From NCBI GenBank assembly GCA_018056375.1, contig JAGPFQ010000001.1, positions 598,137 to 644,853 of the forward strand: a stretch of DNA of 46,717 nt, in the 5' to 3' direction. Position 1 is the first letter of the stretch, and the number at the start of each line of letters is the position of its first letter. Positions 4,382 to 25,397 of the stretch are shown here, piece by piece. The position numbers and the translations under genes are program-made. Source of the stretch: Candidatus Dojkabacteria bacterium (GTDB taxonomy: Bacteria; Patescibacteriota; Dojkabacteria; SC72). The notes beneath the pieces were generated by a model. The model made no database searches. It worked only from the letters and a program-made list of their open reading frames with translations, and was not told the DNA's origin.

Positions 4382-5776
4382 ATGGTAGAACTATTACAAT
4401 TACTAGATGATGTTCTTAAGAAGAAGATTAATATATCTGACTTCCTTGATGCTCTAGTAGTGGATGCTCTTAAAAGCAGAGCATCTGATATTCACATAGA
4501 ATCCAAGGAGGATGATATTCTTTTAGTAAGATACAGGGTTGATGGAGTATTGAGAGATATAATTTCAATTGGTCCAGAACTAAAAGATACTCTCCTCTTT
4601 ATCATCAAAGTAAGAGCTAAGTTAAGAACAGATGTTCATCTTGCACCACAGGATGGGAAGATTCCTTTTGTTGTTAAAAAAGCCGATATTGATGGTGATA
4701 AAGAGAAGATAAAGAAAGAGGAAGAGAATGATAAAGACCAAGAGAAAGATGATGCAGAAAAACCCATTGAGGAAAAAGAGGAAGAGGAACAAGAGAAGAA
4801 AGTACTAAACAGGTTGGAAGCATTCAAAGCAGAAGAAAAAGACACTTACAATGTTGATGCTAGAGTATCAATACTTCCTGTTTCATACGGTGAAAAAGTT
4901 GTAATTAGATTGTTAACACAAGCGAACCGATCTCACTCTTTAGCTGATCTAGGTTTTGAAGAACATGATTTAGCCGAACTAGAGAAAGCATACACACAAC
5001 CATATGGACTAATATTAATTACAGGACCTACAGGTAGTGGTAAAACCACCACACTCTACTCTATTCTAAAGATATTAAATACTCGGGAGGTCAATATAAC
5101 AACGATTGAAGACCCTGTTGAGTACAGTATCGAAGGTGTTAATCATATCCAAATCAACGTAAAAAGTGATTTAACCTTTGCTACTGGACTTAGATCTATT
5201 TTAAGACAAGATCCAAATGTCATTATGGTCGGCGAGATCAGAGATACAGAAACAGCTAGAATTACTGTTAACTCGGCACTAACAGGTCACTTAGTGCTAT
5301 CTACTCTCCACGCAAACGATTCCGTAAGTGCTGTACCAAGATTGATAGATATGGGTATTGAACCTTTTTTAATCGCATCTACATTAAATATTGTCGTTGC
5401 ACAAAGATTAGCAAGAAAACTCTGTCCAGATTGTAAGAAACCATGCTCTCTAGAAAAAGATAAAGAGATAAAAGAAATGTTAAAGATAAGACCAGATGTA
5501 GCAAAATATATAAAACCAACAGATAAATTCTACAAAGCAGTTGGTTGTGATAAATGTAACAATGTTGGATTAAAAGGAAGAATCGGAATATATGAAGTAC
5601 TAGTAATTAACAAAACTATGAGAGATACAATAATAAAGAATCCTACTATGGACGATATTTTCCAAACAGCAAAGAAATCTGGTTTTAAACTAATGGTAGA
5701 AGATGCTGTAGACAAACTTAAAAAAGGATATATAGATATACCTGAATTACTTAAGGTTATTGCAATTAAAGATTAA
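4382..5776 (+). CDS. pilB: Type IV pilus/T2SS assembly ATPase (PilB/GspE)
   Basis: ASDIHIE, Walker A GPTGSGKTTT, TIEDPVEY, LRQDPNVIMVGEIRD, TGHLVLSTLH, CxxC...CxxC zinc motif. Confidence 0.95.
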   Translation: MVELLQLLDDVLKKKINISDFLDALVVDALKSRASDIHIESKEDDILLVRYRVDGVLRDIISIGPELKDTLLFIIKVRAKLRTDVHLAPQDGKIPFVVKKADIDGDKEKIKKEEENDKDQEKDDAEKPIEEKEEEEQEKKVLNRLEAFKAEEKDTYNVDARVSILPVSYGEKVVIRLLTQANRSHSLADLGFEEHDLAELEKAYTQPYGLILITGPTGSGKTTTLYSILKILNTREVNITTIEDPVEYSIEGVNHIQINVKSDLTFATGLRSILRQDPNVIMVGEIRDTETARITVNSALTGHLVLSTLHANDSVSAVPRLIDMGIEPFLIASTLNIVVAQRLARKLCPDCKKPCSLEKDKEIKEMLKIRPDVAKYIKPTDKFYKAVGCDKCNNVGLKGRIGIYEVLVINKTMRDTIIKNPTMDDIFQTAKKSGFKLMVEDAVDKLKKGYIDIPELLKVIAIKD

Positions 5777-12648: not shown

Positions 12649-13386
12649 TTAATAAAAATCATAAAACTGTTCTATCTCACACCTAGGATATAGTTCTTTC
12701 ATTTCAAAAAGATCATTTAAATCTTCCATGTTCTTCGCCTTAGATAAATTTTCTAAAAAGATTGTATACTTCTCTTCTTTAATCTCCCATTCAGAATTGA
12801 TAAATTGACCCCAAATAACAAGAATTTTTGTTTTAGGATCTCTAGTTCTCATATCTTTAAGATATTCTTTTGGAAACAACCTCTTATACTCCTCCCTGTT
12901 ATACAACCAACTACCACCTTCTACATATTTAGCCTTGGGATATTTCTTTCTAATTTCCTCAAACATCTCTTTTAACTCAGCTAATCTTTTAGGTTTTTCA
13001 CTTAAGGATAATGGACCATTCTTACTCTTACCATCATTAAGAAAATGTATCTTTACAACACCTTCTCCATTCCCATCTTCTACATACTTGTATCCAAAAC
13101 AACCAAACCATTTTTTCTTTTTATCTGGATCTTGATAGTTTTGTATATGTAATTCATATGCTACATCTACCATGTTCTCTCCTTTTTCATATCTATCTAT
13201 TAGTTCTTTCCAATGTTTAGATTCTGGATCAAAATCCCATGAGTAGTTACCTATGAGGAAGAATATTGGTGTATACCTTTTAATAGATTCAATTATATCT
13301 ATACCCTCTATTTCACCTCTTTTAGAGGCGTATTCTATAATCATATGGAAGAGTTTTTTAGGATAGAGTTCTTTTTTAGGTTGCAT
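12649..13386 (-). CDS. Conserved hypothetical protein (GGSWLYN...RLFP motif)
   Basis: 245-aa ORF; TGaTATAAT 5 nt before the ATG. Confidence 0.8.
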   Translation of the reverse strand: MQPKKELYPKKLFHMIIEYASKRGEIEGIDIIESIKRYTPIFFLIGNYSWDFDPESKHWKELIDRYEKGENMVDVAYELHIQNYQDPDKKKKWFGCFGYKYVEDGNGEGVVKIHFLNDGKSKNGPLSLSEKPKRLAELKEMFEEIRKKYPKAKYVEGGSWLYNREEYKRLFPKEYLKDMRTRDPKTKILVIWGQFINSEWEIKEEKYTIFLENLSKAKNMEDLNDLFEMKELYPRCEIEQFYDFY

Positions 13387-19213: not shown

Positions 19214-22200
19214 TTATACATCAAGCAAGAGACCACTAACTTCCATCTTTCGTTCTCCCGAAATTCTCGCAAAATCATGAAACTCAACGTATTGATCACC
19301 TGTTGCAGATTCTGTGATACTCACTGTAACTGTTTCTGCTTGTCCTGACATGTTGTTCTTATTGAAACTTTCTAACAACACTTTTGCTGAAGTTCCAACT
19401 GATGACATAGCAGCACCAGAAATAAACACTCCTAATTTAATATTTGGAAATTGTTGCTTGATAATCTTTTGTTTCTTAAGAATAGTTTTAATATGGTTCT
19501 CTAGTATTTTGCGAGATCTCGTGCCATACACTCTATCAAAAACAAAAGCTATACTGTTAGAACCATCAACCTTGTCTATAGGTACTACAAAAACTATTTG
19601 ATCTGAGATACTTCTTTCTTTTCTAGAACCTTCCTGAGTGAAAAGGAAAAACTTATTAGAATCTCCAAATGTTAGATTGGTGTCGTTGTTAATACCATCT
19701 GTCATACAAGATAAGCACTCACGAATGTTTTTTATTACCACATTTAAATTATTGGTAGCAACACTAGTGATAACTTGTTCTTTGTCTCTTCTGTTTACAT
19801 TAACTTTTATCTCGTTTAATTTGTTTTTTAACTGCTCGTTGTCTGTAACTTCAATAACATTATCTATTTGACTGTTAATTTTCTGTTGTACTTCGTTATA
19901 TTTTTCTTCTAACTTAATTACTTGTTCACGTATTTTAGAAAGATATGTATCGACAATCTCTTTCTCTTCAGGTTTAAGTTTATCTTCCTTTTTAACAACT
20001 AAATTTTCTAGATGATCTATATCTTGAGATAGAGCTATAGCACCAGAAGTCTGTGTAAAGTCCTCACCTAACTTGTTGAAGATTTCAATAACTGCAGATT
20101 CTGGTTGAAGCAAACTCTCAAGTACTTCAATATCCCCCTCAACCCCTTTTACAGTTTCCGCTAAACTGATAACAGCTGAAAAAGGTTTTAGTTCTTTTTG
20201 AAAAACTCTGTTTAATTCTTCTGGTGTTTTTTGAATGTTGTTCTCTTCCATAATTCGAAAGACCTCTTCCCGTATTCTCTCTTCTTCTATTGTAAGAGAT
20301 TCTCTTAGAGGTTTGTTGTTCATCTGCATCCATATCTTGCTGACAATACTGCCAAACGACTTTTTCTTTCCTCCTTCTTTGTCCTCTACATTTCTTTCCA
20401 TATACCCTTGCAACAACTTTATTCGTTCTCTATCCAAAGGAGTTGGATACAGATCCTCATCAGTTAATTCTTCCAAATTCTTAATAATATTGGTTAGTTT
20501 TTGATCAACCGTTGTAATGTTTGCTAATTCCATATTAGATACCTCTGTTTGTAGTAATTGCATAAACAAAGGTATTTCCTCTGGTTGAATGCCAAGGTTT
20601 TCTGCTGTTAAAGGATTTAGCTTCTTCCTCTCCTGAAGTACAGTCTTAATATATGCACTATTCTCTGGAATTAGATACTCATGAGGATTAATATCTTTCC
20701 CCTCTCTAAAATCACCCCATTTATCATTAACCATCATAGCTAGATAGAAACCTAAAATCTTTTCTTTGTCAGGAGTTTTATTTCTCATGGTAGATAAATA
20801 CATTGCAACATTCGAAAAAGATTGTATATGTTCAGGAGTTATCCGTTCTGAAATTTTAATAATTCCAAAGCGTTCTTTAACCAAACCTCTTATTTCCGTT
20901 AACAACCTTTGTCTCTCTTCTTCAAAAGTGACTTCTCCTGATTTAAACATTTCAGTAAAATTACGTATATCAGTACGCATACCCATTAATACTTCTTTGC
21001 TATATATCTTTTCATCTCCATTTCCTCGTTTTTCTTCAATAGCCAACTTTGCCCTATGAAGTGGATATATATTACTAACAAAACCTTCTAATTCAGAAGG
21101 AGAAAATTCTTTAAAGAGAGTTAGATTATCTGAAAAGATACTTGGTGCTACATCTATAATATCACGCGAAATATTGTAAAAGTCTGTCCTCTCGTTATTA
21201 GACCATTTTTCATTATTAAACCTTTGTTCTATTTCTAATAAGCCTTGAGCTATTTCAACCTTTGTTCTATCTACTGTTGTCTCTTTAGAAAATGCATTGT
21301 TAACACTTACTATTAAAGAATTTAAAGAAGTTACTTGGCTTAAAGGACCTGCTCCTTCACAATAGTGAATAAATTCGGAAGTTAGAAGTAAAGAGAAAGG
21401 AATATCTTCTAGTCTACCTGTTTCTAAACCAGACTCCAAGTAAGTCAACCACTGTTCTTTTAATCCATTCAGAGCTGTATCTCGAACTTTAGGATCTTCA
21501 AAAACTTCTTTTATCTTTTTAGTTGCAGTATCTGAAAATTTGGGTAAGTAATAGTCGTCAAAATCTGCCCTAGTAAAAGCCATTAATAGTGAATGCCAAA
21601 CCATCTCTTTTAGTTCGTCTACTTCTTTGTTTTCTAGAATGTTATTAATATTGATTAAGTGTTGCTTGACTAATAATGGTAAAACTCGTTTAAACTCGCC
21701 TTTATTACTGGACCTAGATATGTTTATCTCTCTTCCTATATTTATATCTTCTTTTTGTTCTATTGAAAACTGATGTCTTTGAATCATGTGTTGGGATAAT
21801 AACAGTCCTTCGTTGGTTTTAAGAAAGAATTTTGGATAACGAAGAACATCTTGAAATTCTTGGGTTTTTATACCATCGGAACCGAAAAGTACTGGTAATT
21901 CTAATGCACGCTCTTGAGTTATATCTTTGTTGTTAACTAAATTAGCTATTTTTCCAAGCAGGACTTTTTCTTCGTAATACGTCACAAACAAGCTTTTAAA
22001 GAACTCCACTCCTTTATCAGTCTGAAGAAATAACTCAGGAAACTGTAACAACACTTTGTTGCTTTGAGATTCTACTATATCTTTGCTAAGCTTTTCGTGT
22101 AGTTTTAGGGCAAAATCCGGAGAAACTTTCTCTTCCCCTACTAATTTGTAAAGGCCTGTTAAAAATGTTTGATTCGAAAAATTAGCAGACAAATCCTTAA

Positions 22201-24466
22201 GGAAGATAACACTTTCTTCTCCCTTAAAATAAGAACAAAAGGAAGAACAAAGATCATAATTTTCACTCAAAGAAGGGACTGCTTTGTAAGCACTTAACAG
22301 AACAAGTAAATCTGAGGACGATATTGCCAAATCTGCTGACTTATTTAAAACACTATCAGATGTTAGATATTTTATAGCATTAATATCTGTCTTGTTCTCT
22401 AAAATAAGATTAGCAATAGTAGAAAATCTTCTTATTACCTCAAGTTTCTGCGGATCAACAGAACCACTTTGCTCTGCAGACAGTAAAGCCAAATGCTCTC
22501 TGAGATTAACACAAAATTCTGAGGCAAACTCGTTCTTAGAAAGATTGTCTTTCATATCGGAGTCATTAATATCAAATACTGAGTCTTTTAATCCAGGTTC
22601 ATCTATCATATTGCTAGGAATATCGTTGAGAAAAGTTATAGCTTGTGCTATAGAATTTTGTTCTTGTTCATTTATTATCCCTCTTTTAGCCAAAACATTA
22701 ACAACAGAAACTTCCTGTTTCAGGAAATGAACAGCACGTTGCCTATCATCTCCACTAACATTTTCATCTTCAATAACTTCTAATAACAAATCGTTCGCAG
22801 CACTCCTAATATACGAAGTAGTCAAAGAACCTACACCACTTTCTAGCAACTCTCTTGCTGGCTTTAAAGATGGGTAAACTCCTTCAGCAACATCTAAAAG
22901 CTGTCCCCAGTTAGGTTTTTGTTTCAATAAGTCGAGAGTGAATCTTATTTCTCCTCTTACATAATAGACTCCTTCACCTGTAGCGAGTAGAACTAAACTT
23001 TTAATAGCGTCAGGGGTAGGATAGTAATAAAATAATTTTATATAATCATTTGTATCACCGTATCTCTTGGAATTCTTTATAACTGCTTCATAAACCTCAC
23101 TATCTTTTTGATGAATATAATCTCCAAAAAGACTATTTGCTGTTTTTGAAAATTTTATAGCATTCCACAACATAATTTCTGAAGGTTCTAATGATTTTGT
23201 TCTTTTTGCATACTTTTCAAACATCTCATTATTGTATATATCCGTTTGTAACAACAAATTAACTCTTTCTTTCATAGGAAGTAGTTCAGCAAGAGCCATA
23301 TCAGTAACAAAGCTAGACATTATCTGTTCATTACTCGTTCTTAAAATACCATATAGATTGTGCTGCAAATTTATATCACTTATAAGTTCTGCAAAATTGG
23401 ACAAAGACTCTTCTGGAACGTACAAGTCCTTTCCGTATATTTCAGAATCACTTCTATTATGAAGAAAACTTCTTAAAGATCTATAAAAATCGTTCTTGTT
23501 TTGTTCCGAAACTTCTTTTTCAACTGCTACTTTTTCTGTACAGGGAACAATAACTTCCTCAATATAAGCATCTATTATTTCTCCTGGTATTGTACCATCC
23601 TGTAACATATCTTCTCCTAACTTCTCATACTCAGACACTACTGTATCTATCCTTCTTTTAACCTCACTATATAATAACTTATTTCTCATCTCTTTTATTT
23701 CTGGCACACTATTGAGAAGCCCTCCTTCTATGTTTTTCTTCTCTTTAAGAACAGCAGTTACATTTGAGTACTCGAAATTCAATTCCTCCTCTTTTTTTGC
23801 TAACCTCTTCTTTTCAGATACTGCTTTGATTCTTTGCCATAAACCTTTTACTTCCTCTAATTTCTCTTTTTTGTTAGAAATTTCACTAATCATACTCAAC
23901 AGATTATCTTGCTCTACCTTAGTCTTATTATATTCCTCTTCATTCTGTCCCCTTGCCCTTTCTATTGCCTTAAGTAATGTTCCACTCTTTAACATATATT
24001 CCATTGGGGTAATATCCATATTGTTTTCTAATTCCTTAATCTGAGCAACAACCTCTTCTACTGTAATATCAGAACGAGGTTCAGGAGCTTCCATCTCACT
24101 TACATCTAAAAAGTTTTTTATCTCTTCAACATTCTTACGAATGGTTTCCTTCCTCTCTTTAACTTTAGACAAGAAAGGTTCTATCTCTGTTTCTGTTACA
24201 GAAGCATCTTGTTGAAGATTATCAAGTTCTTCTACCAAAGAATCTGTTTCTGTTTTTAATTCATCTACCTCACTACTAAACCTATCTACTGGCTCGTTCA
24301 ACTGTTCACCTACCAATGTTGTTACTTCTTCTGAAACGGTAAGAGCTTCATTTAAAGCATCCTCTCCTCTCTCAGCCACTATAACAGTATCCTTAGATAC
24401 TTCCAAAACTTCTGGGGTTTGCTCTCCTGTTTCTCCTTGTGTTCCCTTATCAGAGTTGTCAATCAT
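19214..24466 (-). CDS. Giant hypothetical protein (1750 aa): coiled-coil/helical body with alpha/beta C-terminal domain
   Basis: Uninterrupted 5.25-kb ORF; no signal peptide or TM seen. Confidence 0.9.
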   Translation of the reverse strand: MIDNSDKGTQGETGEQTPEVLEVSKDTVIVAERGEDALNEALTVSEEVTTLVGEQLNEPVDRFSSEVDELKTETDSLVEELDNLQQDASVTETEIEPFLSKVKERKETIRKNVEEIKNFLDVSEMEAPEPRSDITVEEVVAQIKELENNMDITPMEYMLKSGTLLKAIERARGQNEEEYNKTKVEQDNLLSMISEISNKKEKLEEVKGLWQRIKAVSEKKRLAKKEEELNFEYSNVTAVLKEKKNIEGGLLNSVPEIKEMRNKLLYSEVKRRIDTVVSEYEKLGEDMLQDGTIPGEIIDAYIEEVIVPCTEKVAVEKEVSEQNKNDFYRSLRSFLHNRSDSEIYGKDLYVPEESLSNFAELISDINLQHNLYGILRTSNEQIMSSFVTDMALAELLPMKERVNLLLQTDIYNNEMFEKYAKRTKSLEPSEIMLWNAIKFSKTANSLFGDYIHQKDSEVYEAVIKNSKRYGDTNDYIKLFYYYPTPDAIKSLVLLATGEGVYYVRGEIRFTLDLLKQKPNWGQLLDVAEGVYPSLKPARELLESGVGSLTTSYIRSAANDLLLEVIEDENVSGDDRQRAVHFLKQEVSVVNVLAKRGIINEQEQNSIAQAITFLNDIPSNMIDEPGLKDSVFDINDSDMKDNLSKNEFASEFCVNLREHLALLSAEQSGSVDPQKLEVIRRFSTIANLILENKTDINAIKYLTSDSVLNKSADLAISSSDLLVLLSAYKAVPSLSENYDLCSSFCSYFKGEESVIFLKDLSANFSNQTFLTGLYKLVGEEKVSPDFALKLHEKLSKDIVESQSNKVLLQFPELFLQTDKGVEFFKSLFVTYYEEKVLLGKIANLVNNKDITQERALELPVLFGSDGIKTQEFQDVLRYPKFFLKTNEGLLLSQHMIQRHQFSIEQKEDINIGREINISRSSNKGEFKRVLPLLVKQHLININNILENKEVDELKEMVWHSLLMAFTRADFDDYYLPKFSDTATKKIKEVFEDPKVRDTALNGLKEQWLTYLESGLETGRLEDIPFSLLLTSEFIHYCEGAGPLSQVTSLNSLIVSVNNAFSKETTVDRTKVEIAQGLLEIEQRFNNEKWSNNERTDFYNISRDIIDVAPSIFSDNLTLFKEFSPSELEGFVSNIYPLHRAKLAIEEKRGNGDEKIYSKEVLMGMRTDIRNFTEMFKSGEVTFEEERQRLLTEIRGLVKERFGIIKISERITPEHIQSFSNVAMYLSTMRNKTPDKEKILGFYLAMMVNDKWGDFREGKDINPHEYLIPENSAYIKTVLQERKKLNPLTAENLGIQPEEIPLFMQLLQTEVSNMELANITTVDQKLTNIIKNLEELTDEDLYPTPLDRERIKLLQGYMERNVEDKEGGKKKSFGSIVSKIWMQMNNKPLRESLTIEEERIREEVFRIMEENNIQKTPEELNRVFQKELKPFSAVISLAETVKGVEGDIEVLESLLQPESAVIEIFNKLGEDFTQTSGAIALSQDIDHLENLVVKKEDKLKPEEKEIVDTYLSKIREQVIKLEEKYNEVQQKINSQIDNVIEVTDNEQLKNKLNEIKVNVNRRDKEQVITSVATNNLNVVIKNIRECLSCMTDGINNDTNLTFGDSNKFFLFTQEGSRKERSISDQIVFVVPIDKVDGSNSIAFVFDRVYGTRSRKILENHIKTILKKQKIIKQQFPNIKLGVFISGAAMSSVGTSAKVLLESFNKNNMSGQAETVTVSITESATGDQYVEFHDFARISGERKMEVSGLLLDV

Positions 24467-24585
24467 TGTTTTAACCTAAGCTTGAGTTTATCTATCTCTC
24501 TACTATCCTTTATCTCTATTAATCTAGCTCTAATCTCTTTAAGCCTTTTTAATATTCTCTTTATTTCTTCTCTATAATCTACCAT
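24463..24585 (-). CDS. 40-aa basic coiled-coil uORF MVDYREEIKRILKRLKEIRARLIEIKDSREIDKLKLRLKQ
   Basis: Manual translation; stop overlaps the giant gene's start (ATGA); TGtTATATT (-10 at 24592-24597) lies 6 nt before its ATG. Confidence 0.65.
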   Translation of the reverse strand: MVDYREEIKRILKRLKEIRARLIEIKDSREIDKLKLRLKQ

Positions 24586-24659
24586 AGTAATAATATAACA
24601 GAAAACAAAAGATATAGAAAGTTGTTAACAAAACGCATTTTATAACAAGAAACTGTACA

Positions 24660-25397
24660 TTATTTTCTCCTCGCATACTCCCACATACCAATACTTGTAG
24701 CTACTGAAAGATTCAATGAATCAATCTCATCTGAATGAGGTATGTATATGCTTTCTCCCTTTCTCTTCTCCATTGTTTTGTAACTCTCATCTAACCCCCT
24801 ACCCTCATTACCTTGTATAAAAGAGAAAGGTTCTTTAAATTCTACTTCAAGGATATTCTTCGCCCCATCTAACATAAAAGGATACAGATTATGATCCTTG
24901 TAAACCTCCGTATACTCATTAATTGTATTAAAATATCTAAAATGAATTCTAAACAGTGCCCCCATTGTAGATCTAACAACCATAGGGTCAAAGATATCAA
25001 CACCTGGTTTAATTATTGCAAGATTCTTAAACCCAAAACCAACCATAGTTCTAATAATCGTACCTAAATTACCAGTATTACTAGGATTAACTAAAACAAT
25101 ATGATTCTTTTCACCCTCTAACTCCTCTTCATACTTTTCAAACACCCCAACCACAAAAGTATTCTCCTTGTATGCAATCCTATCAATTAACTTATCATTC
25201 TCTTCAAAAGGAATATTCTCTCTCTTACAAATATCTAATATTTCAGAAACACCATCACTCTTTAAACCTTCTTTCTTAACTAAAACCTTTAAAACCTTTT
25301 CTTTTTGGAATTTCAATAAATCTAATACAGGATACGCTCCAAAAGCATATGAAAAATCAAATTTCTTTTGATATCTTTTTAATTTTGGTAGTTGCAT
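24660..25397 (-). CDS. TrmH/SpoU family RNA methyltransferase
   Basis: NPSNTGNLGTIIRT, QGNEGRGL, IDSLNLSVATSI. Confidence 0.9.
   Translation of the reverse strand: MQLPKLKRYQKKFDFSYAFGAYPVLDLLKFQKEKVLKVLVKKEGLKSDGVSEILDICKRENIPFEENDKLIDRIAYKENTFVVGVFEKYEEELEGEKNHIVLVNPSNTGNLGTIIRTMVGFGFKNLAIIKPGVDIFDPMVVRSTMGALFRIHFRYFNTINEYTEVYKDHNLYPFMLDGAKNILEVEFKEPFSFIQGNEGRGLDESYKTMEKRKGESIYIPHSDEIDSLNLSVATSIGMWEYARRK

Follow-up and report, generated by a model that had tools for sequence, protein, structure and literature searches.

In mycobacteria, polycistronic mRNAs can have a leaderless short open reading frame (sORF) as their first gene (Shell et al. 2015, PMC4633059; Canestrari et al. 2020, bioRxiv 10.1101/834739), and such an sORF can control expression of the operon's main gene. 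Overlaps of four nucleotides between adjacent genes mediate tight coupling by termination–reinitiation (TeRe) and are enriched among complex subunits (Huber et al. 2019, PMC6728339; 2023, PMC10666635). Both features appear to come together at a locus in a 46,717-nucleotide stretch of DNA from Candidatus Dojkabacteria bacterium (assembly GCA_018056375.1, contig JAGPFQ010000001.1, positions 598,137 to 644,853), referred to here in its entirety as the window. At this locus an sORF of 40 codons directly precedes a gene for a protein of 1750 residues, the giant. The two genes probably form an operon in which the sORF is translated first, from a leaderless start, and is coupled to the giant by termination–reinitiation.

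Like the mycobacterial examples, the window sORF is short, unannotated, located at the predicted 5′ end of its transcript and without a Shine–Dalgarno (SD) motif, with the main gene of the operon directly after it. Unlike them, it has no polycysteine or other run of sensor codons and no space into which an attenuator would fit; its host is a Patescibacterium, its peptide has a coiled-coil-like heptad pattern and its transcript 5′ end is predicted from sequence. The pair also resembles ATGA/TGATG pairs coupled by TeRe, being co-directional, with a 4-nt ATGA overlap and a downstream gene that has no SD. In contrast to those pairs, the upstream gene has only 40 codons against 1750 in the downstream gene, and the coupling is likewise a prediction.

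All parts of the feature are on the minus strand (Table 1). The sORF begins with an ATG at 24585–24583 and ends with a TGA at 24465–24463; its translation is MVDYREEIKRILKRLKEIRARLIEIKDSREIDKLKLRLKQ. Six bases (ATTACT) separate its ATG from an extended −10 box, the complete element TGTTATATT-ATTACT-ATG occupying 24600..24583. The ATG of the giant, at 24466–24464, has three bases in common with the TGA of the sORF. A preliminary description of the locus had placed the box 6 nt from the sORF ATG and the sORF stop across the giant's start; spacing, coordinates, peptide and overlap all proved correct on reading the sequence. Its statement that this was the only promoter-like box before the giant has to be narrowed, as a second −10-like hexamer, TAAAAT, lies in the spacer 51 nt upstream; TGTTATATT is the sole TGn-extended box there.

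Table 1. Features of the sORF–giant locus, other window genes with a similar start, and loci with small ORFs before related giants.
Feature	Position or locus	Strand	Basis or remark
40-codon sORF, putative leaderless first cistron, basic heptad-repeat peptide	24463..24585	minus	sequence, codon usage, gene calls
Extended −10 promoter box TGTTATATT (TGn + TATATT)	24592..24600	minus	sequence; polymorphic, TAAATT in other strains
ATGA stop/start overlap of sORF and giant, putative termination–reinitiation junction	24463..24466	minus	sequence
Non-coding spacer, 74 nt, SpoU stop to sORF	24586..24659	minus	AT-rich; holds promoter and both strain SNPs (24595, 24613)
1750-residue giant, Patescibacteria-wide family	19214..24466	minus	ORF; homologue searches
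Acidic N-terminal region of giant, residues 1–135	24062..24466	minus	37 D/E vs 13 K/R; candidate docking region
C-terminal alpha/beta domain of giant, weak GNAT-like fold	19217..19822	minus	AlphaFold and Foldseek
SpoU-family RNA methyltransferase gene, upstream, outside the unit	24660..25397	minus	Pfam PF00588, E 8.7e-29
Long genes with TGn-extended −10 box near ATG	13386, 16484, 42766, 44544	minus	window scan
Long genes with TGn-extended −10 box near ATG	16577, 44776	plus	window scan
A3 family of small ORFs, Parcubacteria, 52–63 residues	L011, L032, L110/111, L029, L068, L037, L143, L160		
A5 family of small ORFs, Microgenomates, 87–105 residues, helical	L089/090, L098, L104		
Singletons	L075 and window sORF		

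SD motifs of the GGAG type precede only 2 of the 43 window genes (25809 and 41532, both minus strand). Six long genes have a TGnTAnnnT box that ends 5, 6 or 9 nt upstream of their ATG. From the box-to-ATG signature of these six genes it follows that the organism routinely uses leaderless or near-leaderless first cistrons. The start of one of them, at 13386, reads TGATATAAT-TTACT-ATG and is a near copy of the sORF start. When the window was scanned for strong boxes, defined as a TGn box with at least five of six matches to TATAAT placed 5–9 nt before an ATG, ten sites were obtained: six long-gene starts, the sORF, and three frames of at most 7 codons. The sORF therefore has what is found at leaderless-gene promoters and at these window genes, namely a −10 element 5–9 nt upstream of its ATG and no SD. 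Overlapping stop/start junctions are common in the rest of the window (at 5776, 6920, 7374, 9307 and 41532, for example), and an ATGA junction is the local norm for operon-internal genes. The architecture is an ordinary design for this organism, and both of the mechanisms invoked are already established. A predicted leaderless start and a coupled ATGA junction are well supported at the level of sequence, and they match the way in which this genome and its relatives build operons.

The near absence of SD motifs and the TGn boxes before many first cistrons point to a largely leaderless or coupled regime of translation in this Patescibacterium. Patescibacteria are an uncultured phylum whose rules of translation initiation are barely documented; a literature search for leaderless translation in Patescibacteria (the Candidate Phyla Radiation) gave nothing specific.

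In the proposed mechanism, RNA polymerase would start from the extended −10 box at, or 1–2 bases from, the A of the sORF ATG, producing a leaderless mRNA. Ribosomes would then load on the 5′-terminal AUG and translate the 40 codons. Finally, termination at the UGA of the AUGA would be followed by reinitiation on the AUG of the giant. Indirect evidence for coupling is that the giant has neither an SD site nor a leaderless promoter of its own: its ATG is preceded neither by an SD motif nor by a strong −10 box. The product of the first cistron would be a basic, helical peptide with a heptad repeat. If it is translated, the locus is a clean example from Patescibacteria of a leaderless mini-cistron gating a 5.2-kb gene through an ATGA junction.

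Several lines of evidence indicate that the 40-codon ORF is most likely a genuine, lineage-specific small gene. When the 193-nt spacer (from the SpoU stop to the giant's ATG) was shuffled by dinucleotides, an ATG-initiated ORF of at least 40 codons arose by chance in 0.5% of cases; among random sequences matching the window in composition, 5% contained one. A codon log-odds score was trained by contrasting 42 long genes of the window with the five alternative frames of each. On this score the sORF reaches 0.29 per codon, compared with 0.253 ± 0.137 for 39-codon windows of real genes (n = 322) and −0.104 ± 0.148 for spurious ORFs of 30–90 codons overlapping genes out of frame (n = 173), none of which attains the value of the sORF. 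The remaining five frames of the sORF region score between −0.40 and −1.07. The preliminary description had noted that the ORF track misses the sORF; gene callers do call a 40-residue gene in all three of the independent Logan assemblies that hold it whole, and in two further Logan contigs it is cut by the contig end. Annotation pipelines with length cut-offs will overlook the first gene of such operons.

The peptide contains 14 K/R and 8 D/E residues (net charge +6), and 9 of its 12 heptad a/d positions are hydrophobic (permutation p = 0.012). It had been described as strongly amphipathic and basic; the basic character and the heptad pattern bear this out only in part, as the helical hydrophobic moment of the whole peptide is not above that of shuffles (p = 0.64), since the heptad register shifts beyond residue 25 and flanking positions are hydrophobic too. 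The giant's N terminus had in turn been described as a strongly acidic coiled coil, and its acidity is confirmed by residue counts (Table 1). Searches of Pfam, NCBIfam and PADLOC with the peptide gave no match, and no RHH or other DNA-binding domain was found in it. Within the window, tblastn and blastn with the sORF returned only itself, the next match having an E value of 0.86 and a match to the giant's own coiled coil one of 5; an origin of the sORF as a paralogue or by duplication within the window was rejected on this basis.

The locus is present at a minimum of 99.9% identity in five Logan contigs and in contigs of eight further metagenomes, which several studies had sampled from wastewater, activated sludge and digesters. 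Its occurrence in many assemblies and strains rules out an assembly error. Among these strains no variation is seen in the sORF or in the 866 nt that open the giant; across 23600..24660 there are two differences only, both single nucleotide polymorphisms (SNPs) in the 74-nt promoter spacer, at 24613 and 24595. The SNP at 24595 changes TATATT to TAAATT, which is the allele of all other samples, so that the TATATT of the window is the minority form. The TGn and positions T1, A2 and T6 of the hexamer are retained in TAAATT.

Homologues of the giant, 1400–2900 residues long, were found in 24 protein clusters, 79 genome loci and 80 metagenome loci; the genome loci span Microgenomates, Parcubacteria, Saccharibacteria, Gracilibacteria, Peribacteria and Berkelbacteria. 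These loci gave 88 distinct giants with an intact 5′ end. A search for similar ORFs before giant orthologs had been suggested as a check on the sORF, with a divided outcome: no relative of the window peptide lies upstream of any of the 88, and most orthologs have no upstream small gene at all, but analogous charged ORFs are enriched at this position. Small charged ORFs, defined as 40–110 residues with at least 30% charged residues and ending between −30 and +25 nt from the start, abut 9 of 81 giants (11%) as against 5 of 265 other long ORFs of the same loci (2%; odds ratio 6.5, Fisher p = 0.001), the control starts being ORF-based rather than curated.

The position of promoter-like boxes varies with the presence of these ORFs. 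Where no small ORF is present, a strong −10 box lies 4–10 nt before the giant's own ATG in 18 of 76 cases, in 12 of them at exactly 6 nt; the background, measured at internal in-frame ATGs, is 2.9%. None of the 12 giants with an abutting small ORF has a −10 box of its own. At three loci (L068, L089 and L098) a TGn box instead lies 6 nt before the small ORF, and at L104, from the A5 family, a plain TATACT box lies 9 nt before the ATG. This distribution fits a scheme in which the small ORF, where present, would take over the leaderless position from the giant. A single orphan peptide is by itself of moderate interest; the wider pattern, a sixfold enrichment of small ORFs before the giant family and a −10 box that moves from giant to small ORF when one is present, is the more useful lead. 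It offers a testable handle on expression of the giant, and possibly on what the giant binds.

The small ORFs fall into groups that are mutually unrelated by hhalign (Table 1). The best represented, A3, comprises 41 clusters in the large protein collection (P0028–P0068), all ‘hypothetical’ and helical. Four A3 members were looked up via the small protein alone, and in three of the four the gene lies directly upstream of a large ORF (1360–1718 residues). Two adjoin giant orthologues, at 7 nt before the start or 14 nt into the gene; a third is 4 nt before a protein of 1360 residues, which is not a detectable homologue of the giant and has a similar acidic N terminus. The fourth precedes a 559-residue protein whose N terminus is homologous to the N termini of A3-partnered giants. 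At least some of the small ORFs are therefore conserved proteins whose genes accompany the N-terminal module of large proteins. Like A3 proteins, the window sORF abuts the start of a giant, and it is of similar size, helical and K/E-rich; some A3 genes also have a leaderless-type promoter. It differs in having no detectable sequence relationship to A3 and in preceding a giant of the Microgenomates type.

A3 was also observed before a second, unrelated family of proteins of about 1360 residues with an acidic N terminus, at L170 and as the second large ORF of L160. At L029, a spacer of 172 nt (2404–2576) separates the A3 ORF from the giant; within this spacer a GC-rich hairpin (GAAGACCCCCGGGGTTGGGGCATCTTAACCCCGGGGGTC) stands out from AT-rich surroundings.

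Within the reading of the sORF as a coupled first cistron, a role of the peptide in trans is slightly favoured over one in cis. In trans it would most likely serve the giant as a small partner in binding or assembly, perhaps at the acidic N-terminal region, a suggestion made because 4-nt overlaps favour subunits that are made together. Gene-like codon usage, the heptad pattern, the existence of conserved analogues and the enrichment of complex subunits among overlapping pairs all speak for a function in trans, and the orphan status of the peptide and the mutual unrelatedness of its analogues speak against it. When the charges of small ORFs and giant N termini were compared by eye at 12 loci, no clear trend towards complementarity was seen. 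A broader form of the proposal can be put forward only tentatively: the giant, as a helical protein with a GNAT-like tail found across Patescibacteria, may in many lineages depend on a small helical protein that evolves fast, is made from the first cistron of the same leaderless mRNA just ahead of the giant, and docks co-translationally on the N-terminal module, in which case the window peptide, A3 and A5 would constitute one class of adaptor or assembly chaperone no longer recognisable by sequence.

Alternatively, the sORF might act purely in cis, being translated only so that ribosomes are captured at the leaderless 5′ end and delivered to the AUG of the giant, with the peptide itself functionless and degraded. 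The strict orphan status of the peptide would agree with this, as would the occurrence of at least three mutually unrelated small-ORF families, together with singletons, at the same position in other lineages, which is expected if the act of translation alone matters; nor does any sORF-bearing giant have a −10 box or SD of its own. However, the codon usage and amino-acid pattern look selected, with a codon score at the mean of real genes as well as the heptad periodicity. A3 is conserved as a protein and travels with large ORFs, so that at least some small ORFs are constrained, and in many relatives the giant is directly leaderless and a delivery ORF unneeded. On balance, a device acting only in cis is considered unlikely.

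A number of observations weigh against the sORF being a translated, leaderless and coupled first cistron. The locus was found in none of three RNA-seq runs, all tiny and from the same study. No terminator-like hairpin was found in the 74-nt spacer between SpoU and the sORF, and read-through transcripts in which the sORF is not 5′-terminal are therefore possible. In most strains the −10 box, as TAAATT, has only four of the six consensus bases. The nearest relatives of the giant are just 36–47% identical and have no sORF of this kind. The peptide is a strict orphan: only itself was retrieved from 5.8 billion proteins and, by an exhaustive HMMER scan, from 1.84 billion representatives, and no homologue was found in 2.08 Mb of six-frame translations around 164 giant loci. 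It matches A3 with an hhalign probability of 0.7% and is not retrieved by a four-sequence hidden Markov model (HMM) or by jackhmmer; against A5 the probability is 0.2%, with one 11-residue patch (LKRLKEIRARL vs LPRLKEIYSEL). The strain sets are too similar for the detection of purifying selection on the peptide, and no sequences of intermediate divergence were found. To these is added the unremarkable hydrophobic moment of the whole peptide.

Several of these observations would be accommodated if the sORF were a chance ORF in a purine-rich 5′ untranslated region or a read-through transcript, the giant initiating alone in an A-rich, unstructured leader without an SD. Lack of conservation outside the species, the weak box of most strains and the missing terminator after SpoU are all compatible with this. 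SD-independent initiation must in any case be common in a genome with so few SD motifs, and the leader is indeed unstructured: neither the 5′ 186 nt of the putative mRNA (z = +0.29) nor the junction (z = +0.35) folds more stably than shuffles. Yet an ORF of this length has a chance probability of 0.005–0.05, and its codon score exceeds that of every spurious ORF. A chance ORF would also have to combine exact leaderless spacing with an exact ATGA junction, at a position where charged small ORFs are enriched in orthologs. Such an origin is thus regarded as improbable, and a leaderless first cistron coupled to the giant is retained as the preferred reading.

The preliminary description had offered the sORF as a leader for ribosome delivery or as a chaperone, antitoxin or secretion partner of the giant; the leaderless-type start and the coupled junction are upheld at the level of sequence, while nothing speaks for secretion and an antitoxin finds little support. 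The latter idea draws on TacAT, AtaRT and KacAT, pairs of GNAT toxin and RHH antitoxin in which, as here, a small upstream gene overlaps a gene whose product has a GNAT-like fold. The giant has no sequence match in Pfam, NCBIfam, PADLOC or the PDB. An AlphaFold model of its residues 960–1750 (pLDDT 84) is mostly helical with a terminal alpha/beta domain, and as a whole has no significant neighbour in the PDB. For a separate model of the C-terminal 202 residues (pLDDT 82), the top 50 Foldseek matches in the PDB all had the GNAT fold and included TacT, AtaT, KacT and GmvT. These matches are weak (E 0.007–0.07, probability up to 0.99, TM 0.3–0.5) and generic to GNAT enzymes, and the GNAT-like C terminus is best taken as a weak, fold-level hint rather than a demonstrated acetyltransferase. 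Stand-alone GNAT toxins such as those of TacAT and AtaRT have about 160–180 residues, whereas the window giant is GNAT-like only in its last 200 or so, and its family is widespread in Patescibacteria rather than consisting of mobile toxins of about 170 residues. The conservation pattern differs from that of GNAT/RHH pairs too: most orthologs are without an upstream small gene, and the peptide has no DNA-binding antitoxin domain or database match. That the peptide is an antitoxin or immunity protein for a GNAT-type toxin domain is accordingly very improbable.

Least probable of all, to the point of being negligible, is an artefact, in which the sORF would be a frameshifted N-terminal extension of the giant (through sequencing error, pseudogenisation or programmed frameshifting) or a structured RNA element: the two frames do abut, but five independent assemblies and four further runs all show the same junction, which contains no X XXY YYZ slippery heptamer. 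The start of the window giant, MIDNSDKG, aligns with homologue starts (MDENKD, MDETKE, MPENTE), and the sORF is therefore not a displaced N terminus; on these grounds a frameshift or sequencing error was rejected. A structured RNA element was rejected as well, there being no Rfam match in the 5′ region and no fold above shuffles. A regulatory leader peptide or attenuator was discarded for the same lack of significant structure and of an Rfam match, and because the ORF overlaps the gene and no terminator-like site is present.

The N-terminal 300 residues of the window giant are homologous to the N termini of Microgenomates giants, which places it in that N-terminal class. In the C-terminal domain of the giant, R/C/L, NNDT, D..YG and Y.E are invariant; outside that domain, the conserved C-terminal half is helical and without a structural neighbour.

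Upstream of the unit, congeners with a SpoU 3′ end about 88% identical to that of the window occur in several metagenomes, and their sequence departs from that of the window exactly at the SpoU stop (24661); these congeners therefore show no synteny between SpoU and the giant operon. The congener loci in metagenomes yielded neither a giant nor an sORF of intermediate divergence. One congener variant has a new gene (MERENLFE...) whose start overlaps the SpoU stop in a TAATG. At giant loci of several lineages (L002, L007, L048, L057 and L065), tRNA-like sequences lie directly upstream of the giant, in place of a protein gene.

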